Position numbers and translations under genes: made by a program | Source of the DNA: Lysobacterales bacterium | Lineage (GTDB): Bacteria > Pseudomonadota > Gammaproteobacteria > Xanthomonadales > SZUA-5 | DNA length: 48,045 nucleotides | Direction: 5' to 3' | NCBI GenBank assembly: GCA_022844165.1 | Contig: JALHMH010000036.1 | Span: 1 to 48,045, forward strand | Notes under the pieces: generated by a model | Database searches by the model: none | Told to the model about the DNA's origin: nothing | The model's input: the letters and a program-made list of their open reading frames with translations, nothing else | Shown here: positions 4,231 to 13,780 of the stretch, one piece after another | Numbering within the stretch: the first letter of the stretch is position 1 | How the letters are laid out: the number at the start of each line of letters is the position of its first letter

Positions 4231-4869
4231 TCACAATTTGATCAATCCCTGCTGCACGGCATTGAACACAGCTTCGGAGCGGGAGGTGGCAGCGAGTTTG
4301 GGGTAGAGGTTCTTGACGTGATGGGCGAGGGTGTTGGTTTGCATGCCCAGGATCTCCGCGGCCTGACGGTAGGTGTGGCCCCGCGCCAGTGTCTCCAGCA
4401 CTTCGCGTTCGCGCGGTGTCAGCTCGTTCATTGGATTGGTCTTCGCGTGGCGTTCCTGTTGGCGCAACTTGCGCAGCATGAAACCGGCGACGGCAGAGGA
4501 AATAGGCGATTCGCCGGCGGCGGCGGCGCGCAGCGCATCGAGTAGCTCGGTGCTGTCGGCGCCTTTCAGGACATATCCATCGACGCCGGCTTCGATGGCC
4601 TCAAGTACGCTGGTTTCATCGCCGAATAGCGTGAACACCACCACCACTGGCCGGCGTTTGCCGAGTGATTTCAGCAGTTCCGTGCCGCGACCATCGGGCA
4701 AGCCTAGATCGAGCAAGAGAATGTCGGCGGGTTGGGCGAGCGCAGCGCGCGCCTGATCCAGATCGTGCGCGATCCAGACGAGCGTAAATTCGTCGGTGCT
4801 GGAAAGGCTTCGTTGCACGGATTCGCAGACCGCGAGGTTATCTTCGACGAGGGCGACGGTTTTGGTCAT
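4231..4869 (-). CDS. NarL/LuxR-family response regulator
   Basis: REC domain (LVED, LLDLGLPD, GYVLK) plus LuxR HTH (LTPREREVL). Confidence 0.95.
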   Translation of the reverse strand: MTKTVALVEDNLAVCESVQRSLSSTDEFTLVWIAHDLDQARAALAQPADILLLDLGLPDGRGTELLKSLGKRRPVVVVFTLFGDETSVLEAIEAGVDGYVLKGADSTELLDALRAAAAGESPISSAVAGFMLRKLRQQERHAKTNPMNELTPREREVLETLARGHTYRQAAEILGMQTNTLAHHVKNLYPKLAATSRSEAVFNAVQQGLIKL

Positions 4870-4979: not shown

Positions 4980-5175
4980 TGCTCGGCGGCCTGAGGCGAA
5001 GCCTCGCTAGAGTCCTTGATGAAGCTGGATCTTGTCATTTGAGTCAAATTTTCTTAGGAGCGGCTTTGGCTTTTGCAGCCCCTTAAGTTAAGGGGCGCGC
5101 GAAGCGCGGGTTGTGGCAAGTTCGGTGTCTGGCGAAGCCAGCAATGCTCGGCGGCCTGAGGCGAAGCCTCGCTAG
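4980..5175 (+). repeat. Dispersed repeat family B, short form (CTAG 5007 to CTAG 5175), preceded by a duplicate of its last 31 bp
   Basis: CTAGAGTCCTTGATGAAGCTGGATCT...GGCCTGAGGCGAAGCCTCGCTAG. Positions 4980-5010 are identical to 5145-5175. Homologous to 40882-41298 and 47739-47984 in the opposite orientation. Confidence 0.85.
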
Positions 5176-5195
5176 TGTTGTTACGGGGGAAGGTG

Positions 5196-7070
5196 ATGCG
5201 CGCGTTGATGTGGTGCTTGTTTTGGTTGGTGCTGTTTCTGCCGGCGGTACATGTCGCCGAACGATTGGCGCTTCCTGAGGGCATGGACGCGCGCGACTCG
5301 ATTGCCTATCGCTTGTACGACGCCAACGGAAACGAATTTGCCAACGGACCTTGGGCCGCGCCGCGTATTGGCTTGGAGGGTTATGTCGTCGATGTCGTCG
5401 AAAATGCCGAGCGCATCGTTTTCGAAGTGCCCTTCGAACGCGCCGCAGATGATGATCAGCCGCTGGGTCTGTACTTCAGTTTGCAAGAGCAGACGCTTGA
5501 AGTTCGCGTCAACGGCACGGTCATTCGTTCTACCAAAAGCATTCCAAAGTTCGAGGGCATGTTGACCAGCGAACCGGCGTTCTACGCGATGCCGGTCGAC
5601 AGTTTGATCGTTGGCCAGAATTGGCTCGAAATCCACAAGACGGCAATGGGCGTCGACATGGCTCTCAGTCCATTCGCCGTAGGTCCGGCGGACGAGTTGA
5701 TCGAGGCCTATCGCTGGCGAAGCTTCTTTGTGATCGATCTTGGACTGATCAGTATCGGCGTGCAGTTGTTCGTGCTGCTGCTGATGGCATTGATCAATTG
5801 GCCGGAGACCGAAAGACCGCGCATTCGCGCGCTGATGTTGATCATTGCGCTGAATGCTGCAGCGATCTACTTCCTGAGTTTCAGGCCACCCTTCGAGATG
5901 ACGTTGGCGCAGTTCGTTTATCTATGGAGTGGCCTGAATCTGGCGTTGGGGCTCGCGGTATTGGCTTTCGCTGCATTCGATAGTGCCGTGAGGTTGCCAA
6001 TTCGCATGCGTTGGGTCTGGGTGGGCATCTTTGCGGCGCATGCTGCGGCGTTCGCAGTGTTGCCGCTCGATGTCGACAGGTCACTCACCAAGCTGGTGAA
6101 TGTGCCTTATGGGTTCCTTAGTGTTACGACGTTGGCCTCGATCCTGCTGTTGGCGCTGGCGGTGATCCGATCCAATCCTGCGCGGCGCTTCGAGCGCAGC
6201 GTGCTGGCGCTGTCGTTCGGCGCCATGGCGCTCGACCGTATCGGCTCGTTGATCGATCTGCATTCGCCCTTCGACGCCAGTTTGCCGATGACGCTGACCT
6301 GGGGGCCGATTCTCGGCACTTTTCTCGGTCTCTCGATGCTCCTGGCGCTGGCGCGCGAAGCGGCGCGTGCGCGGGAAGTGGTGGATCAGGCCAACCAGCG
6401 CCTCGCACAGGCTCTGGCAGCCCGCGAGGCTGAGCTGGCCGAAAGCTATCGGCAGCGCGAGGCGATCCAGCGGCAGGCGGCGGTGCTGGAGGAACGCCAG
6501 CGACTGGTGCGCGATATGCACGATGGCATCGGTGGTCAATTGATGAGTTTGAAGCTCAAAGCCGAATCGGGATCGCTCGATCAAGCCACACTGAAAAGTG
6601 GTGTCACTAACAGCCTCAACGATCTGCGGCTGATCGTCGATTCGCTCGACAGTGCCGAGGACGGCGTATCGCTCACGCTGGTGGCCTTCGAGCGCCGCTT
6701 ACGACAACAGCTGGCGGGCACCGGCGTGACGTTGAAAGTGATCGACGAAACCGGCAATGCGCATGCCGCGCTGGCGCCGCGTCAGATCTTGAACGTACTG
6801 CGAGTACTGCAGGAGGCCGTGACCAATGCGCTGGCGCACGGCAAGGCGACTTTGTTGGAGCTGCGGGCGCGTTTCGCAGATGACGAGCGCAACTTCGAAT
6901 TCCTGCTGATCGACAACGGATCAGGTATCGATGCGACACAACCGGCGGGCCATGGACTGCGCAATATGCAACAACGCGCTGCGGCGATTGGCGGTGTGTG
7001 CGCCGTCGACAGCGATGCGAGCGGGACGCGGGTGCGAATTTGTGTCCCAGCTGCTGCTGCGGTGAGTTAG
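5196..7070 (+). CDS. Membrane sensor histidine kinase (HisKA_3/NarX-type), periplasmic domain plus ~7 TM
   Basis: H-box ERQRLVRDMHDG, N-box QEAVTNALAHG, DNGSG and GHGLRNM. GGGGAAGG RBS before ATG 5196. Confidence 0.93.
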   Translation: MRALMWCLFWLVLFLPAVHVAERLALPEGMDARDSIAYRLYDANGNEFANGPWAAPRIGLEGYVVDVVENAERIVFEVPFERAADDDQPLGLYFSLQEQTLEVRVNGTVIRSTKSIPKFEGMLTSEPAFYAMPVDSLIVGQNWLEIHKTAMGVDMALSPFAVGPADELIEAYRWRSFFVIDLGLISIGVQLFVLLLMALINWPETERPRIRALMLIIALNAAAIYFLSFRPPFEMTLAQFVYLWSGLNLALGLAVLAFAAFDSAVRLPIRMRWVWVGIFAAHAAAFAVLPLDVDRSLTKLVNVPYGFLSVTTLASILLLALAVIRSNPARRFERSVLALSFGAMALDRIGSLIDLHSPFDASLPMTLTWGPILGTFLGLSMLLALAREAARAREVVDQANQRLAQALAAREAELAESYRQREAIQRQAAVLEERQRLVRDMHDGIGGQLMSLKLKAESGSLDQATLKSGVTNSLNDLRLIVDSLDSAEDGVSLTLVAFERRLRQQLAGTGVTLKVIDETGNAHAALAPRQILNVLRVLQEAVTNALAHGKATLLELRARFADDERNFEFLLIDNGSGIDATQPAGHGLRNMQQRAAAIGGVCAVDSDASGTRVRICVPAAAAVS

Positions 7071-7114
7071 CGATCCGGCACAGGGCCGACGCACGGCTTC
7101 GATCATAGTTGCCA

Positions 7115-8797
7115 CTACAAATTTGCCGAAGGGAGCACGTGCTCGGACTGATGGAACCCATGGCACGCAATACAGGTACTCGGGAGTAACTCCTGGTGAT
7201 GCTCACCTGCGTGGCACTGACGGCAGTTAGTGATTTCGGGAATCAGCAAATCGGCGCTCGCCTGCGATTGACTCGCGATGTGGCAGGCTTCGCAGTCCAT
7301 CGTGACGTGGGCGTTGTGCGTGAAGCGCGATTTTTCGTACCACTGGCCTGCCACCCGCACGGGAGCAACCTGCCAGCCGCCCCGGACTGCGGCGGGGTCT
7401 TTGCTGACGCTATGACACACGCCGCAGGCCCGCCCAGAAAACAGCGTATCGGTGGTCTGGGTGGACTTTTGTTGCGCCCAGGCAAGCGCCTCGCGACGCT
7501 CTTCTTGCGACGGCGGCGGCTGTCCAGGACGCCGCCGTTGGCGCACGATCACGGGCGCGGTGACATCGTCGTAACCACCTTCCAGGGCGACTTTTGCGTA
7601 GAACTCATCGAGCATGTATTGCACAGCCGCAACGTCGGCGTGCGGCACCTGACGGTCTGGGATTCGCAGATCGAAATCCAGGCGATGGCAGTCCTGGCAG
7701 TGCTGCTCAAAATCGATTGGTGCGATCAGCGCACCACCGGGCTCGGCGGTATGGCAATCGGCGCAAACCAGGTTCACCGTTCCGCTTGGGCTGGTCACAC
7801 CACGCTCGCGCAAATGCGTGGCGTGCGGGAACTTGAGCCCGGAGCTTTCGATCAGCGGGATCTGGTCCATGCTCGTGCGCACAGGCGCAAAACTCCCGTC
7901 TTCGGCCCAGGCAGGCAGCAGCACACTGAACTGCGGATGCGAGCGTCCGAAGTCTTCCACATTGGTCAATAGCGTTTGATTCGGAATGCGTTCAGTCAAA
8001 TTGCGATGACAATCGGAGCACAGGATCTGGTCGTTGCGCACCAGGCCTTCATTGCCGTTGTGGTCGCGATGGCAATGCGCGCAACGGGCCTCGGCAATGT
8101 CTGGTAGCGGGAACTGTGCCGGATCGGCGTGCGCCGGCGTGGCGGTGTGGCAGGCCACACACTTTTCATCTTGCACAACTTCGAACGGCTCGCCGTGGCA
8201 GGCCTGACAATCGCCTGCCATCGTGTGGTGCGCGTCGTGCAGACGTCCGGTGTCCCAGGCGTTTATCGCGACCATCGGCATGTGCTCCGTCGCGATGCGC
8301 AGCGTCGGTACATAGTGCGCCGCCAAGGGAATACCCAAACCGATGATCAGCATCGAGACCAGTCCGATCCACGCCGCGCGGCGTTTGCCGGCGCCCGCTT
8401 CGGCCAGTGTCATTGGTAGCGCTTCGGCGTCTTCGCGGGCGGCAACTTCGGTTTTGTCGACCAACGACACTTCCACCGCGGCTTCGAAGTCCTTCGGTGG
8501 ATCGACCAGCGTGATGCGCGTATTGCCGACCTCGATCTGGCTGCCAGAGGTGGCGGTCGCGTTTTGTTCGAGTCTGCCGTCCAGACGAATGCCGGAGGCG
8601 ACCAATGCCTCAATACGGTAGCGGCCGTTGCCCAGCACAGTGACGGTGGCATGCTCCAGAGCAGCCCGTAGATCGTTGACGAAAATCGCTTGATCGGCGG
8701 CGCGGCCGATGCTCAGCGTATCGCCAAAGTGGATTTCCTCCTCGTACGAGACGCTGCCTTTGCCTTTTTTGACGACGCGGCGAATGTGCCATTTCAT
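7115..8797 (-). CDS. FHA-like domain + TM anchor + decaheme cytochrome c
   Basis: Ten CxxCH motifs (CQACH, CVACH, CAHCH, CSDCH, CADCH, CQDCH, CGVCH, CEACH, CRQCH, CIACH). N-terminal SIGR...EHA FHA-like segment and one hydrophobic helix (WIGLVSMLIIGLGIPL). Confidence 0.9.
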   Translation of the reverse strand: MKWHIRRVVKKGKGSVSYEEEIHFGDTLSIGRAADQAIFVNDLRAALEHATVTVLGNGRYRIEALVASGIRLDGRLEQNATATSGSQIEVGNTRITLVDPPKDFEAAVEVSLVDKTEVAAREDAEALPMTLAEAGAGKRRAAWIGLVSMLIIGLGIPLAAHYVPTLRIATEHMPMVAINAWDTGRLHDAHHTMAGDCQACHGEPFEVVQDEKCVACHTATPAHADPAQFPLPDIAEARCAHCHRDHNGNEGLVRNDQILCSDCHRNLTERIPNQTLLTNVEDFGRSHPQFSVLLPAWAEDGSFAPVRTSMDQIPLIESSGLKFPHATHLRERGVTSPSGTVNLVCADCHTAEPGGALIAPIDFEQHCQDCHRLDFDLRIPDRQVPHADVAAVQYMLDEFYAKVALEGGYDDVTAPVIVRQRRRPGQPPPSQEERREALAWAQQKSTQTTDTLFSGRACGVCHSVSKDPAAVRGGWQVAPVRVAGQWYEKSRFTHNAHVTMDCEACHIASQSQASADLLIPEITNCRQCHAGEHHQELLPSTCIACHGFHQSEHVLPSANL

Positions 8798-8807
8798 CGC
8801 TGCGCCC

Positions 8808-9701
8808 TCACCAGTAGAAAAACACAGACAGGATGTGTGCGGTCAAGGCGCCAAGCAGCGCGAGCGACAGCGGCACGTGAATGTACAGCCAGATTTCCAT
8901 CAGTGCCTGCAACTGGATGTCTCGCGCGACGCGGCTGGCAAGCGCACGTTTGCGCGACACCAGATCGATCAGGCGGCGCAGCGTGTCGCTTTGCACGTCG
9001 TTGGCTTGATTGGCTAGAAAGTCGACCATCACAACCATGGTTTGCCCCGAGCGGTGTTGTTTGTCGGCGGTCGCAGCCTGCGTGACGGCTTCTTTGAGTC
9101 GCGTCAAGGCCTGGCCCGAGTCGTCTTTTGCCGTGAGCTGTGCCCAGAGCCCGCCGCCGAGCCTGGTGTTCTGGATCGATCGCAGAATCGCATCGTGCAC
9201 CGATTTGTCGACCTTGTCCGCCAGTTGCAGCGCTTGTGCGTCGAGTTCGCGAATCTCTGCCACCATCGCTTCGCGGGTCGCACTGGCGCGATTGCGCGTC
9301 ATCAGCGCCGGGTACCGCAGGTATGCGTAGACACCGAAAAATCCGCTGAAGATCACCAGCAACATCAGCACCAGGGCCAGCGTATGGATGTTCCAGCCGA
9401 CCTGGAATCCCGAGTGCAGCAAACTGATCAGTATCAGCGAGGTGCCCAGATACACGTGCGCACTCAACCAGCCACGCGCCGTGCCGATCGCTCGTCCATA
9501 GCGGCGTTTGCGGATGCCGAACCACAGCAACCACACGATTAATACCGCGCCGATCGTGCCTAAGGTATAGCCCAACCACGAGCCGCCATTTGGCACGCCG
9601 ATCGGATCGTGCCACAGGTACGCCGTCAGTGAGCCTGCGCACAGCAAGATCGATACCCAAAGGTAGCGATAGCTGCGGAAATTAAGGATCGAGTCATGCA
9701 T
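8808..9701 (-). CDS. Integral membrane protein, probable di-heme b (ferric-reductase-like transmembrane domain)
   Basis: Several TM segments and two H-x13-H pairs (HVYLGTSLILISLLH; HVPLSLALLGALTAH). Start taken at ATG 9701 (MHDSIL), downstream of the tandem repeat. Confidence 0.75.
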   Translation of the reverse strand: MHDSILNFRSYRYLWVSILLCAGSLTAYLWHDPIGVPNGGSWLGYTLGTIGAVLIVWLLWFGIRKRRYGRAIGTARGWLSAHVYLGTSLILISLLHSGFQVGWNIHTLALVLMLLVIFSGFFGVYAYLRYPALMTRNRASATREAMVAEIRELDAQALQLADKVDKSVHDAILRSIQNTRLGGGLWAQLTAKDDSGQALTRLKEAVTQAATADKQHRSGQTMVVMVDFLANQANDVQSDTLRRLIDLVSRKRALASRVARDIQLQALMEIWLYIHVPLSLALLGALTAHILSVFFYW

Positions 9702-9721
9702 GGTGGGGCGCGAGACCGAGA

Positions 9722-9978
9722 GGGCGTGCGGGGCACGGGGCACGGTACAGCAATTGCGGGGCACGGGGCGTGGGGCACGTGGCACGGTACAGCAATTGCG
9801 GGGCACGGGGCGTGGGGCACGGGGCACGGTACAGCAATTGCGGGTCACGGGGCGTGGGGCACGTGGCACGGTACAGCAATAGCGGGTCACGGGGCGTGGG
9901 GCACGTGGCACGGTACAGCAATTGCGGGGCACGGGGCGTGGGGCACGGGCCACGGTACAGCAATTGCGGGGCACGGTA
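9722..9978. repeat. Tandem array of six 42-bp units built from GGGGCAC-like heptamers
   Basis: CACGGTACAGCAAT recurs at 9741, 9783, 9825, 9867, 9909 and 9951 (exact period 42). Confidence 0.95.
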
Positions 9979-10043
9979 GAGCGAGGAAGGGGGCGTAGGG
10001 CGCAGGCTAAGGGACAAGCGTCGACCGCACCACAACACGTGCA

Positions 10044-10085
10044 CCCGTGCCCCGTGCCCCACGTCCCGTGCCCCGCTCTTGCTGT
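10044..10085 (-). repeat. Single inverted, diverged copy of the 42-bp unit
   Basis: Reverse complement ACAGCAAGAGCGGGGCACGGGACGTGGGGCACGGGGCACGGG versus unit ACAGCAATTGCGGGGCACGGGGCGTGGGGCACGGGGCACGGT. Confidence 0.85.
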
Positions 10086-10102
10086 TCCGCCCCATCACAA
10101 CA

Positions 10103-12493
10103 TCAAGGCGCCCGCGCATACGCGTACTCCGGCAACTGCTCCGGGCTGATGCGGATCGCCGCGCCCGTGGGACAGGCGCGCACGCAGGCTGCGCCGCCTT
10201 TAATGTCTTTGCACATATCGCACTTGACTGCTTTCTTCTCGTGGCTATCGGGATCGTATGGCGATTCGCCGGGGCCAGGGCCGGCGCCGAACAGCAGCCA
10301 CTGTAACAGGCCCGGTTTTTTCTTCGGTTTGGCGGCCATATGGATCACGCCATACGGGCAATTGCGTTCACAGTTGCCGCAGCCAATGCAGTTGTCGGCG
10401 ATGAAAACTTCGCCATTGGGCGCCCGGTGGATCGCATCTGGCGGGCAGTCCTTCATGCAGTGCGGATGCTCGCAATGGCGACAACTGGTTGGCACGTGAA
10501 CGTTGGCGAAGGTCGGACCGGCTTCGCGATCCAATCGTGAGGTGCCTCCGTGAGTCTCCGCGCAGGCTTTTTCGCAATTGTCGCAGCGCACGCATAACGA
10601 CTCGTCGATCAGCAACACGTCCGTTGCCTCGCCGACGCCCTGGCCGATCAAGAACGAAATGACGTCGCCGCTGGAGGCGCCGGCTTGCGTGGTAATGTTC
10701 TCGGCGGTTCGCTGTTTGACTTCGTTCGCCAGCTTCATTCGCAGCATCGGATTTTGTGCCAGCAGCTTGCGAAATGCGTCGCGTTCGACGCGGATCGTCT
10801 CGGTCGCAATCGCTGCTTTGGCGGTAGCCGAACGCTTGCCGCCGCCGAGCAGCGCCATTTCGCCCACATAGTTGCCGGCCGGCACATAGCTCAGCACGAT
10901 TTCGCGACCGGCGATCTGCCGCGAAATCGTCAGCGAGCCAACGCGAACGAGGTGCAGACAGTCGCCATCTTCGCCCTCGCGGAACAACACGTCGCCGGCT
11001 TTGAAACGCTGCAAGGTTGCGCCTTTGACGACATCGCGAATCTGCACTGCGGTTGCTTCTTCGCCGAATCGCGCGCGAATCGCGCGTTCGACGAAGACCT
11101 GGTCGATCATCTTTTTCACCGCATCGACCGAGTTAATGAGTCTTTTCATCGAACGGCGTGGTGTTTCGATCAGCACGCAGCTCTTGCCGGCGACCACGGT
11201 AGCGGTTCTGCGGCGACCCGAAATCAGGCTCATTTCGCCGAAAAACTCGCCCGGATTCAGTACGACACGTTTGTCGCCGCTGTCGTCCATCAGCACTTCC
11301 ACGTGGCCATCAACCAGGCAGTAGAAGCTGTTCGTGTAGTCGTTGCGCTTGAAGATCGCCTCTCCCGATTTTGGCGCAAGCAGCGTCGAGTCGATCATGA
11401 ACTCGCGCAATTGCAGGGGCGTAATCGTGGCCAGGAGCGGCACCGCATTCTGGATCTTCTGCAGCGTTGCGTTGACGCTCTTAAAGCCTGGCATCGATTC
11501 GAACTTCGCTCGCAGCAGCGGCTCGTCGGCGGGTTCCACGCTGCGACCCAAAATGTACTCGACGACCTCGTAACCCTGGTTCATCGCCTGCTTGATCAGC
11601 GGATAACCGCCCAATGCGCCGACGATGTACAACCCTGGCACATTGCTCTCGTACTTCTCGCTGATGGCGGGCACTGCCGCGGGATCGTCGTTCGGGAACT
11701 TAACGCCGCAAGCTTCGACAAACGTCCGCGGTGGATTCGCTCCAAGGCGGGCGATGATCCGATCGCACAGCACCTGCGCACGCCCCTTGGGCGTATTCAA
11801 GATCATGCGCCCCGGTTTCTTGCCGACCGTCAACTTATCGATGCGCTCTGGCGCCGAGCCAAAAAAGCACTCGATGACGCCGTCTTCGATCGCCTTCTGG
11901 ATGGCGCGCAGATTGCCTTCTTTGGCGCGCGCGAACTCTTCCCTGCGATTGACGACGACGACCTGATTCTGTTTGGCCAGAGCCACGGCATTTTCGATGG
12001 CCGCATCGCCAGCACCGACAACGATGATCGTCTCACCCTCATACTCGTCCGGATCGTCGAGCGTGTACTGAACAAAAGGCGCGTCTTCGCCCGCGACGCC
12101 GAGCTTTCGGATGTTGCCTTGCAGGCCAATACCGAGAATGACGTTCCTGGCCTGGATCTTGTCGTTGCGGCCAATCGACAGCTCAAAACCGGCGTCGGTT
12201 TTTTTGATCGCCGTCACTTCGGCGCCGTGCCTGACGTTGACGCCCAGTTTGGCAACGTCCTGATCCCAGCTTTCGAGAATGGACTCGCGCGAGCCGGCCT
12301 GAAACTTGAGTGGCGAGCGCAGCGGCAGAGCCTCCGGCTCGGCCATGACGTGTTTGCCTTTCTGATAGCGATAAATGGTGTTCGACAGGTGCAGCGCGCC
12401 CTCCAGCAGGATATGCGGGACCTTGAGTTCTGCGGCACGCGCGGCGGCGCTGATTCCGCCCGGTCCGGAGCCGACAATCGCGATCTCGAACAT
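10103..12493 (-). CDS. FAD/NAD(P)H oxidoreductase (TrxR/YpdA-like) fused to two cNMP-binding domains and a 4x[4Fe-4S] ferredoxin domain
   Basis: GSGPGG and GAGDAA Rossmann motifs. cNMP cassettes FFGEMSL...RTATV and YVGEMAL...RSATA. Fe-S motifs CVRCDNCEKAC, CRHCEHPHCMKDCP, CIGCGNCERNCP and KCDMC...CVRACP. Confidence 0.92.
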   Translation of the reverse strand: MFEIAIVGSGPGGISAAARAAELKVPHILLEGALHLSNTIYRYQKGKHVMAEPEALPLRSPLKFQAGSRESILESWDQDVAKLGVNVRHGAEVTAIKKTDAGFELSIGRNDKIQARNVILGIGLQGNIRKLGVAGEDAPFVQYTLDDPDEYEGETIIVVGAGDAAIENAVALAKQNQVVVVNRREEFARAKEGNLRAIQKAIEDGVIECFFGSAPERIDKLTVGKKPGRMILNTPKGRAQVLCDRIIARLGANPPRTFVEACGVKFPNDDPAAVPAISEKYESNVPGLYIVGALGGYPLIKQAMNQGYEVVEYILGRSVEPADEPLLRAKFESMPGFKSVNATLQKIQNAVPLLATITPLQLREFMIDSTLLAPKSGEAIFKRNDYTNSFYCLVDGHVEVLMDDSGDKRVVLNPGEFFGEMSLISGRRRTATVVAGKSCVLIETPRRSMKRLINSVDAVKKMIDQVFVERAIRARFGEEATAVQIRDVVKGATLQRFKAGDVLFREGEDGDCLHLVRVGSLTISRQIAGREIVLSYVPAGNYVGEMALLGGGKRSATAKAAIATETIRVERDAFRKLLAQNPMLRMKLANEVKQRTAENITTQAGASSGDVISFLIGQGVGEATDVLLIDESLCVRCDNCEKACAETHGGTSRLDREAGPTFANVHVPTSCRHCEHPHCMKDCPPDAIHRAPNGEVFIADNCIGCGNCERNCPYGVIHMAAKPKKKPGLLQWLLFGAGPGPGESPYDPDSHEKKAVKCDMCKDIKGGAACVRACPTGAAIRISPEQLPEYAYARAP

Positions 12494-12679
12494 GCGCTTC
12501 CTCGCGCGTCATGGATCGGTGAAGTATGCCTAATGCACCGCGATGCGTGCGATCAGCAACAAAGCCCAAAGCGGTTCAAACAATCCACCGCTGGAGCTGG
12601 CGGTTGCGCAGGATGCTCCGTTCGACTTGATACGCCCGCGTCGTTCCGCGCGTTCTCAATTTCGGCCCAGCGGCGTTTT

Positions 12680-13780
12680 TCAGTACACGCCACCAAGCAC
12701 GCGAGGGCCGCTTGCGCCGGTCACTTCGGCGCAGTTCCCAGCCTCGCGGCAGAGTGCGCGCCGGGCCAGCCACGCAAACGCAGCAGCTTCAACAAAATCT
12801 GGATCTAAACCGTGCTCACTGCTGTTGCTGAAGCGAATCGATCTGCCAAAATGTCGGTCGACAGCCGTTTTTGTATGTGCCAGAAGAGCGCGATTGTGCA
12901 CCCCGCCACCGCAAACAACCACTTCGGTCGTGTCGGGTTGCTCACGCGAGAGCGCGAGCGCAATGCTGCTTGCTGTCAGGGCAAGCAGCGTCGCTTGAAC
13001 ATCCGCAGGCCGGTCGGTGCCTCTTAACTTCGGTAGCAACCAACGCAGATTGAACATTTCCCGTCCGGTGCTCTTGGGTGCCGGTTGCGCAAAGTAAGAA
13101 TCGGCCAGCAGACGATCGAGCAAGGGTTCAATGATTGTTCCGGATGCGGCAAACGCGCCGCCCTCGTCGTGTACCACGCCCAGATGTTCTTGCGCCCAGG
13201 CGTCCAGCAGACAGTTGGCCGGGCCGGTGTCGAATCCACGTACAGGTTGGTCTTTGGCCAATAGCGTGAGATTGGCGATACCGCCAAGATTGAGAATCGC
13301 GCGAGGGCTTTCGCAGGCAAACAAAGCCGCATGCAGGCCGCACACCAGTGGTGCGCCCTGGCCGCCAGCGGCCATGTCGCGTCGGCGAAAGTCGGCGACG
13401 GTACAAATGCCGGTTGCTTCTGCAATTCGATTGGGATCGCCAATTTGCAGCGTGAACGGAAACCGATGTTGCGGCCGATGGCGGATGGTCTGCCCGTGCG
13501 AGCCGATCGCCCGGATCGTCGATGGATGCAGATTGGCGATGGCCAGGAGCGCATTGGCCGCATCGCCGAAAGCCATGCCCACTTCAACATCGATCGCGCC
13601 AAATTCGTCGACATTGATGCGATCGGCTTGCATCAGCGCCAGTAGCCGATGCCGCAGATCCGGGTCGTAGGGGAAAGTCTGCGCGGCGATCAATTTGAAG
13701 CCTGGTTCGAAGCACACCACGGCGGCATCGATTCCGTCCGCGCTGGTGCCAGAGATCAGACCTAGAAAGTGTTCTGCCAC
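12680..13780 (-). CDS. anmK: Anhydro-N-acetylmuramic acid kinase
   Basis: Motifs GLISGTSADGID, GSHGQT, DFRRRD..GGQGAPL, NLGGIAN, FDTGP and PKSTGRE. Confidence 0.97.
   Translation of the reverse strand: MAEHFLGLISGTSADGIDAAVVCFEPGFKLIAAQTFPYDPDLRHRLLALMQADRINVDEFGAIDVEVGMAFGDAANALLAIANLHPSTIRAIGSHGQTIRHRPQHRFPFTLQIGDPNRIAEATGICTVADFRRRDMAAGGQGAPLVCGLHAALFACESPRAILNLGGIANLTLLAKDQPVRGFDTGPANCLLDAWAQEHLGVVHDEGGAFAASGTIIEPLLDRLLADSYFAQPAPKSTGREMFNLRWLLPKLRGTDRPADVQATLLALTASSIALALSREQPDTTEVVVCGGGVHNRALLAHTKTAVDRHFGRSIRFSNSSEHGLDPDFVEAAAFAWLARRALCREAGNCAEVTGASGPRVLGGVY

Follow-up and report, generated by a model that had tools for sequence, protein, structure and literature searches.

A conserved flavin, cyclic-nucleotide-domain and iron-sulfur protein, a five-helix membrane protein and a decahaem cytochrome: a candidate transmembrane electron conduit in a Lysobacterales bacterium

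Introduction

The Tmc and Hmc complexes of sulfate reducers combine a cytoplasmic iron-sulfur (Fe-S) protein, a membrane cytochrome b and a multihaem cytochrome c of the periplasm into a transmembrane electron conduit. In these complexes the Fe-S subunit is HdrD-like and the cytochrome b is NarI-like. Here we describe a locus that has the same layout: three genes, designated A, B and C, on the 48,045-nt contig JALHMH010000036.1 of a Lysobacterales bacterium (assembly GCA_022844165.1), a stretch that we refer to throughout, at its full length, as the window. A is a flavoprotein with two cyclic nucleotide monophosphate (cNMP)-binding domains and a ferredoxin domain, B is a five-helix membrane protein, and C is a membrane-anchored decahaem cytochrome with an FHA-like head. 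The Tmc and Hmc complexes are not known to have the NAD(P)H flavin domain or the cNMP domains, and general Pfam and NCBIfam scans returned no HdrD- or NarI-type rows for A or B.

Two other known families invite comparison. On paper, the locus shares with the NADPH oxidase (NOX)/FRE/MsrQ group (PF01794) the sequence of NADPH, flavin and two stacked b-haems, the placement of His pairs on helices 3 and 5, and the export of electrons. The differences are considerable: B has five helices rather than six, the flavin domain of A belongs to another fold family and is not FNR-like, four Fe-S clusters are interposed, and the acceptor is cytochrome c here and O2 there. The nearest sequence family of B is instead the prokaryotic cytochrome b561 family (PF01292; Escherichia coli CybB, PDB 5oc0), to which the match falls below the cut-off and from whose members B differs by an extra helix and a cytoplasmic insert of ~135 aa.

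The type of cluster is already in print, uncharacterised, in He et al. 2017 (PMC5566968), in a preprint on the ptd genes (bioRxiv 10.1101/2023.11.21.568154) and in a preprint on Ferrigenium straubiae (bioRxiv 10.64898/2026.01.22.701106); what we say of these sources applies to their available portions. He et al. describe the protein IMP of PCC3 and PCC4 as having five helices and HX13H pairs, and two b-haems were proposed for it. B shows all three features that define IMP, namely five helices, a W-x3-H-x13-H motif on each of helices 3 and 5, and SGxxG in helix 4. Supplementary Table 6 of the same paper lists Gallionella trios of 544–556 aa (nine haems), 308–310 aa (five transmembrane segments) and 796–805 aa, which match C (560 aa), B (297 aa) and A (796 aa), orthology being judged here from sizes and features alone. 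The available text gives no domain analysis of the large redox protein, and the terms "cyclic nucleotide" and "FHA" are absent from the main text and the supplements examined. In the table of He et al. the trios have no porin; in most of the genomes analysed here, by contrast, the trio is linked to an outer-membrane module.

The NHC cluster of F. straubiae, whose function its authors give as unknown, similarly places side by side an FHA-headed anchored multihaem cytochrome, a five-helix membrane protein and a [4Fe-4S] protein. Its cytochrome has nine haems, compared with ten in C. In the available text the authors see no redox motif in the five-helix protein, prefer an inward flow that ends at quinone and do not mention cNMP domains; they describe the combination of FHA and multihaem domains as previously unreported. 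In the ptdABCDEFG cluster, the function of ptdEFG was called completely unknown. These adjacent genes encode a cNMP-binding Fe-S protein, a membrane protein resembling ferric reductases and a decahaem protein of the periplasm, and we match them to A, B and C by architecture only. The FAD/NAD(P) oxidoreductase PtdC is a separate protein there and PtdE is said to have two clusters, whereas the flavin domain, two cNMP domains and four clusters are united in one protein here. The outer parts also differ, with penta- and tetrahaem proteins (PtdA, PtdD) and a porin in ptd, and here an HbpS-like protein (D), a putative alginate-export-like barrel (E), a decahaem protein with an LVIVD domain (F) and a five-haem protein (G). 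Papers on the Tenderiales uet cluster and on PCC3 were considered and set aside as concerning other systems.

An earlier note on this DNA, made from its sequence, had proposed a cyclic-nucleotide-switched electron conduit and knew of no characterised example. Our literature search, which did not reach the supplements of the ptd and Ferrigenium preprints, found none either, although, as described above, the cluster type had already been published as an uncharacterised candidate. The analysis below confirms what the note had observed and partly supports its interpretation.

Results

Gene linkage and distribution

The list of open reading frames (ORFs) of the window places A, B and C in the same orientation on the minus strand, where together they fill positions 7115–12493 (Table 1). 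The three co-oriented genes announced in the earlier note are real. The window is contig C36 of a 4.68-Mb genome in 59 contigs that is rated 99.97% complete, and the records closest to it are Lysobacterales/Rhodanobacteraceae metagenome bins. For a survey of related loci, one genome per species was scanned, which yielded 79 loci with a B relative (38–97% identity). Linkage counts are limited to loci with enough flanking sequence, and the count of A upstream of B requires a flank of at least 2500 nt. The neighbourhood survey that the note had recommended shows that the genes co-occur: C follows B in 72/72 loci, and A lies directly upstream of B in 61/66. Median gaps are 29 nt between A and B and 44 nt between B and C. 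The order of the trio is kept across Gamma-, Beta- and Alphaproteobacteria and in one Vicinamibacteria record. This arrangement is not the product of chance.

Table 1. Features of the trio in the window and of the partner genes on other contigs of the same genome. Positions are those of the window unless a contig is named.
Feature	Position	Strand	Description
Gene A, 796 aa	10103..12493	minus	Predicted cytoplasmic flavoprotein with two cNMP-binding domains and a four-cluster ferredoxin domain (ORF, Pfam, NCBIfam)
A, flavin domain, residues 3-307	11573..12487	minus	TrxR/YpdA-like, two dinucleotide-binding motifs, no CxxC (Pyr_redox_2/Pyr_redox_3)
A, first cNMP-binding domain	11132..11371	minus	PF00027 above cut-off
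A, second cNMP-binding domain	10751..11011	minus	PF00027 above cut-off
A, ferredoxin domain, residues 628-789	10127..10612	minus	HydN/DmsB-like, four Cys motifs (16 Cys) (Fer4_11, Fer4_7, others)
Tandem repeat	9730..9976	none	42-bp unit x 5.9, inside the A-B spacer; TRF score 445, 95% matches
Gene B, 297 aa	8808..9701	minus	Five-helix inner-membrane protein; W-x3-H-x13-H on helices 3 and 5, SGxxG on helix 4; predicted di-haem b
Gene C, 560 aa	7115..8797	minus	FHA-like head, one membrane helix, predicted periplasmic decahaem domain
C, residues 25-105	8483..8725	minus	Probable FHA-fold head without the canonical Ser and Asn
C, residues 141-159	8321..8377	minus	Single transmembrane helix after GKRR (hydropathy scan and sequence)
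C, residues 197-546	7160..8209	minus	Ten CxxCH haem-c sites (Cytochrome_C7, Cytochrom_CIII, Paired_CXXCH_1)
D, E, F	C4 ~100354-108074 (L083 8355-16075)		Flanked by unrelated genes
G	C35:36429-37646 (L101 1489-2844)	minus	451 aa, secreted, 4 CxxCH + 1 Cx4CH

In five loci A is missing upstream of B. A full-length A (58–72% identity) is present elsewhere in the genome in four of them, and in three of these four it stands on the same contig after two further genes, F and G, in the order B-C-D-E-F-G-A, as judged from contig numbering, lengths and coordinates. In the genome of the fifth locus, a 2.9-Mb bin, A was not found.

Among the sampled genomes of the window's order, B occurs in 66/199, representing 27 of 72 genera and including all 13 genomes of the window's own family; some families of the order lack it (0/28 in one example). 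Public protein databases hold 2215 cluster representatives of the B family at E <= 0.001, and 224 of these at E <= 1e-30. Source records of the family include the cultured carriers Pseudomarimonas arenosa, Tahibacter amnicola and a Dokdonella sp.

In one representative public protein, P0228 (1110 aa), A (residues 14–785) and B (residues 4–297) are fused cleanly and in frame. Its A-like and B-like parts are joined by ~20 residues, and it may be either a natural fusion or the result of a lost stop codon. One more case of the two genes annotated as one appears in He et al. (PMC5566968). Such fusions are rare; they are supportive of a contact between A and B but not decisive.

The flavin, cNMP and Fe-S protein

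Sites in A were assessed in an alignment of 61 full-length orthologues (46–96% identity) and the window protein (62 rows). Pfam assigns the N-terminal part to Pyr_redox_3 (E 4.4e-30, residues 6–292) and also to Pyr_redox_2. The top NCBIfam row is YpdA (TIGR04018), at 121.3 bits well short of its 339.9 cut-off, and the TrxR model scores 63.7 bits against a cut-off of 343.45; no FNR-type row appeared among the Pfam and NCBIfam matches of this domain. Residues 1–610 contain no CxxC, their sole cysteines being at positions 209, 243, 262, 392, 439 and 512. Position 14, which we take to correspond to the active Cys of YpdA, is Leu or Ile in 58/62 rows. The description of this domain as TrxR/YpdA-like without the redox disulfide thus holds. 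Two dinucleotide-binding motifs, GSGPGG for FAD and GAGDAAIENA for the second dinucleotide, vary little or not at all, and the second is followed by N182-R183-[KR]184, presumably the 2'-phosphate (NADPH) signature in a flavin fold of this type.

The two cNMP-binding domains stand between the flavin and Fe-S parts. Pfam places cNMP_binding on both stretches (134 bits against a cut-off of 27.5), and both exceed the cut-off in the scan of the genome. The phosphate-binding cassette of cNMP domains has the motif G-E...R-[ST]-A. In the first cassette, the counts among the 62 rows are G419 62, E420 61, R429 62, S/T430 54 and A431 59; in the second they are G544 62, E545 59, R554 61, S/T555 59 and A556 58. 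With key residues kept in 54–62 rows, both cassettes are under clear constraint, and the earlier impression that they are intact is borne out.

Across residues 665–778, Pfam assigns 4Fe-4S dicluster families (Fer4_11, 38.1 bits against a cut-off of 26.2), and the NCBIfam rows over the C-terminus are HydN, AegA, DmsB and NrfC, with HybA also present. A separate set of 30 sequences was used for this domain. All 16 cysteines of the four Fe-S motifs reported in the earlier note are invariant in that set, and the domain is the most conserved part of A (mean column identity 78%). The motifs would be able to hold four predicted [4Fe-4S] clusters. Between the third and fourth of them, at about residues 727–743 (window ~10265–10315), lies a conserved hydrophobic loop, PGLLxWLLFGxGPGPGE; in the numbering of the A2 alignment, its L119, G126 and G128 are invariant and W122 is at least 90% conserved. 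This loop is a candidate element for docking to the membrane or to B. A sequence scan found no hydrophobic segment in A and, in agreement with the note, no signal peptide.

The possible source of a nucleotide signal was sought in the window genome and in the related loci. The genome has 17 cNMP-domain matches and one class III cyclase (C12:79776-80246, L092), which is fused to a C-terminal canonical FHA domain that retains the GR, S-x-x-H and NG residues. Elsewhere, the cyclases found upstream of A are a GAF-GAF-PAS-cyclase in L059 and L061 (near-identical to each other; L061 726-3017) and a CHASE2-cyclase in L065 (9-1457). In L065, genes for a Slam-like (SlipAM/TPR) protein and for a protein with a FecR domain separate the cyclase from A. 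We regard the conserved cassettes as a stronger argument for cNMP binding by A than the adjacency of cyclases; cyclic-nucleotide gating of electron flow is plausible.

The five-helix membrane protein

The longest ORF of B spans 8808–9974, and the conserved start is at 9701; the 297-aa product is identical to the called protein P0001. An AlphaFold (AF2) model (pLDDT 88.8, pTM 0.83) contains five long membrane helices (residues 12–31, 42–67, 75–97, 105–138 and 235–295) and a helical insert at about residues 138–235. Three of the five helices were found by a hydropathy scan with a threshold of 1.6 (45–63, 108–126 and 270–294). The successive loops contain 1, 0, 6, 0, 21 and 0 Lys and Arg residues, counts that agree with the five-helix layout and place the N-terminus and the insert inside.

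The histidine pairs noted earlier are H82/H96 and H275/H289, each exactly H-x13-H. In an alignment of 62 sequences (32–57% identity to the window protein), all four are among the invariant columns, and both pairs are present in 77 of 80 B relatives among the matches listed. W78 and W271 are at least 90% conserved, so that W78/H82/H96 and W271/H275/H289 each form W-x3-H-x13-H. Residues 118–123 read FSGFFG, with G120 invariant and G123 at least 90% conserved. Because the N-terminus and insert are inside, the model would place a predicted haem bound by H82 and H275 toward the cytoplasm and one bound by H96 and H289 toward the periplasm.

No Pfam or NCBIfam family matched B at E 0.01. The window protein scores 14.2 bits against PF01292 (cut-off 30.1), over residues 264–296 and thus helix 5 only, and has no PF01794 (Ferric_reduct) row up to E 10. 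Among the 62 aligned members, 55 weakly match PF01292 (best E 3.8e-08), 19 match DUF4405, and six match PF01794 at E up to 1 (best 0.001). A profile of B searched against PDB sequences gave a best E of 0.28, and Foldseek with the B model returned nothing from the PDB at E <= 0.001. The leading rows of a VIA-align search were the sensor domains of TorS and PilJ (Z 9.8); a designed di-haem protein scored Z 7.8, inside the stated noise range of the tool, and E. coli CybB (5oc0_A) scored Z 7.4 (root-mean-square deviation 3.6, 130 aligned), within the range of unrelated helical bundles. B is likely to be distantly related to the cytochrome b proteins with two haems, and is closer in sequence to bacterial cytochrome b561 than to NOX. 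With NOX and cytochrome b it has in common a pair of parallel helices that each bear H-x13-H.

The FHA-headed decahaem cytochrome

C has a single membrane helix and ten CxxCH motifs, at residues 197, 213, 239, 260, 345, 367, 458, 502, 525 and 542, as expected for the membrane-anchored ten-haem cytochrome of the earlier note. Ten motifs are present in 69 of 71 complete orthologous frames; the remaining two have 4 and 7. The note had missed the domain that stands N-terminal to the GKRR motif and helix. This head scores 19.5 bits against PF00498 (FHA), just under the cut-off of 20.7, and also matches Yop-YscD_cpl; the orthologue in L067 reaches 24.7 bits. NCBIfam rows over the head are GltG and FhaB, and a search of PDB sequences retrieved the FHA domain of GarA at E 0.0031.

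In FHA domains, Arg, Ser, His and Asn residues have roles in phosphothreonine binding. Alignment of the head to GarA shows that the G-R pair and the His are kept, the Ser is replaced by Ala and the Asn by Ser. Across 72 rows, GR is found in 72 and the His is kept in 71; Ala stands in place of the Ser in 62 rows, with Ser itself in 1, and in place of the Asn in 55. The head probably has an FHA fold that is unlikely to read phosphothreonine in the usual way, and we infer that it is a protein-protein module on the cytoplasmic face. Taken with the signals in A and B, the sequence supports a topology in which A, the insert of B and the head of C would be cytoplasmic and the c-haems outside.

Next to C are genes for a NarL-type response regulator (4231–4869, minus strand) and for a HisKA_3 histidine kinase (5175–7070, plus strand); the kinase gene is convergent with C, and its product begins with a long membrane region. 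We considered this pair as a part of the system and rejected it, given that it is common to just 1 of the 79 related loci (L002).

Partner genes on the outer side

Downstream of C, the related loci encode a further set of envelope proteins. D, a lipoprotein of ~680 aa with three HbpS-like (PF03928) stretches, follows C in 56/63 loci. E (~600 aa) follows D in 51/51 loci; it matches no Pfam family and ends in an aromatic residue, and its language-model neighbours are auto-named as an alginate-export family. We read E as a putative outer-membrane barrel. F, a protein of 1288 aa that follows E in 42/42 loci, carries a signal peptide, ten CxxCH motifs and, at its C-terminus, an LVIVD beta-propeller. 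No other member of the system is as well conserved: identity stays at 53–68% in remote lineages, and the search found more than 5581 relatives. In Burkholderiales loci, F and A flank the gene for the secreted haem protein G (468–481 aa). D is missing after C in seven loci, and four of the five such genomes that were searched have F elsewhere. The trio thus makes up the inner-membrane end of a system of seven genes whose products carry 25 haem-c motifs.

F was examined for a functional lead. It had no match to PDB sequences at E <= 0.01, and a model of its C-terminal part is a generic beta-propeller (pLDDT 79) with 6-phosphogluconolactonase and WD40 proteins as top rows. We considered the propeller as a specific enzyme and discarded this assignment, cd1 nitrite reductase and N2O reductase appearing only amid hundreds of equal rows.

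In the window genome the seven-gene system is scattered over three loci, on contigs C36, C4 and C35. The D-E-F genes on C4 have as their flanks a PfkB kinase and a methyltransferase on the opposite strand. G, which is 43% identical to the Burkholderiales protein, stands alone on the third contig. The earlier note saw no electron acceptor in the window; the acceptor side of the system is present in the genome, on C4 and C35. This three-way split, the 42-bp repeat in the A-B spacer, which the note had also missed, and the lineage-specific two-component pair beside C are local peculiarities. The closest relative, L002, has an A-B spacer of ~290 nt with degenerate sequence related to this repeat. 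A promoter and terminator scan of positions 6900–12900 gave nothing exceeding shuffled sequence that suits the genes.

Discussion

Gene content, the conservation of gene order and of the cofactor and cNMP sites, and the topology of the trio are established. With moderate confidence, our preferred reading of the trio, for which the comparative evidence is strong, is a wire that would run outward from NAD(P)H through FAD, Fe-S clusters and haem b to haem c and in which the cNMP domains of A would act as the valve. A, B and C would form the inner-membrane entry of a multihaem envelope redox system. Cytoplasmic A would take a hydride from NAD(P)H onto FAD and then send single electrons along its four [4Fe-4S] clusters. 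A would dock on B, whose two b-haems, held between helices 3 and 5 with one near each membrane face, would carry the electrons across. C, anchored beside B, would pass them into its ten-haem periplasmic wire, from which they could move on to five-haem G, the decahaem-propeller protein F, the outer-membrane barrel E and the HbpS-like lipoprotein D. By responding to cAMP or cGMP, the two cNMP domains may control how fast electrons enter. Of the transmembrane wire drawn in the earlier note, the conserved cofactor residues, the gene order and a fitting topology stand; cofactor binding, the docking of A on B, outward flow, cNMP gating and the final acceptor are what we infer beyond them.

Outward flow is favoured by the redox span and the membrane potential, and it consumes energy rather than conserving it. 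It would therefore fit a regulated, non-respiratory task. A bolder extension, which we offer tentatively and regard as possible rather than probable, would make the system the counterpart, in bacteria, of NADPH oxidase: a wire opened by cAMP or cGMP and built from FAD, four Fe-S clusters, two haems b and 25 haems c that would spend cytoplasmic NADPH at or beyond the outer membrane in common aerobic soil and water bacteria as a regulated, non-respiratory export. The head of C would then serve as a phospho-independent clamp holding A on B-C. Examples of possible targets are O2, which would yield superoxide outside the cell, and, where the purpose is to capture nutrients, Fe(III), Mn or humic substances. 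The comparison with NOX made in the earlier note succeeds for the histidine geometry, given that both have H-x13-H pairs, and fails for the sequence family (no PF01794 in B) and for the flavin domain, which is not FNR-like. "NOX-like" is apt for the way of working, not for family membership.

Several points weigh against the proposed outward wire. The wide VIA-align search with the B model retrieved generic helical bundles only. The nearest Pfam family of B holds quinone-reactive cytochromes b, and B could serve the quinone pool rather than A. A search for longer fused forms of B produced one protein only (P0391), with frameshifted-looking stretches. Because the A-B spacer of the window genome is 401 nt long (the 29-nt median being that of 67 other loci) and filled with repeats, and because the partner genes are on other contigs, co-expression of A, B, C and their partners in this genome is not assured. 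The nearby cyclases for which the earlier note had suggested looking occur co-oriented a few kb upstream of A in 3/79 loci, two of them near-identical, a weak adjacency. The cNMP-like domains of other proteins bind other ligands, so that cAMP or cGMP is a presumed ligand of A. Finally, the available portions of the He et al., ptd and Ferrigenium papers report no experiment on any family member, and the iron-oxidiser literature proposes inward flow.

The foremost rival, which we consider unlikely, makes the trio a quinone-linked module in which B is a quinone-reactive cytochrome b and A an accessory or regulatory redox protein rather than the main donor. The weak matches of 55/62 B members to PF01292, to which the cytochromes b of hydrogenase and formate dehydrogenase belong, speak for it. 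The hypothesis was stated by He et al. 2017 (PMC5566968), and quinone reduction was also considered in the Ferrigenium preprint (bioRxiv 10.64898/2026.01.22.701106). A merely accessory A, however, fits poorly with its retention beside B in 61/66 loci and elsewhere in the genome in four of the other five, with the existence of an A-B fusion (P0228), and with its four-cluster wire, a type that in known enzymes (the HydN, DmsB, NrfC and HybA rows) connects to a membrane subunit. The analysis identified no quinone site.

More improbable still, in our estimate, is inward uptake, in which an outside or periplasmic donor such as Fe(II) would feed F, G and C and then B and A, which would reduce NAD(P)+. 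Relatives of the cluster do occur in iron oxidisers, where they were proposed as uptake routes. Yet by textbook bioenergetics most such donors are far more positive than the NAD(P)+/NAD(P)H couple, inward flow would oppose the membrane potential, and the cluster has no energy-coupling subunit. The distribution of B is also hard to accommodate, since it occurs widely in the window's order and throughout its family (counts above), and related records are named Dokdonella, Rudaea, Ahniella and Pseudomarimonas, none of which is, to our knowledge, known as an iron oxidiser. We give least credence to a transmembrane redox sensor, in which haems would report the periplasmic redox state through B to A, and A and the head of C would signal with no metabolic flux: two signalling-type domains (cNMP and FHA-like) and a kinase and regulator beside C in the window are present, but Pfam and NCBIfam find no recognisable output domain in A, the kinase/regulator pair is shared in a single locus, the Ser and Asn that bind phosphothreonine are missing from the head of C, and 25 c-haems with an outer-membrane module far exceed the needs of a sensor.

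For the window itself the meaning is more modest: it holds one more instance of a catalogued cluster type, here split over three contigs. Returning to the outward wire, if that reading is true, many aerobic Proteobacteria would own a regulated route that carries electrons of cytoplasmic NADPH to the cell surface and bypasses the quinone pool. Such a route would bear on extracellular substrate reduction, or on extracellular reactive oxygen, in bacteria that do not respire metals. Given that cultured carriers exist, the idea is directly testable. It would also be the first case of a second messenger acting directly on an electron-transfer chain.

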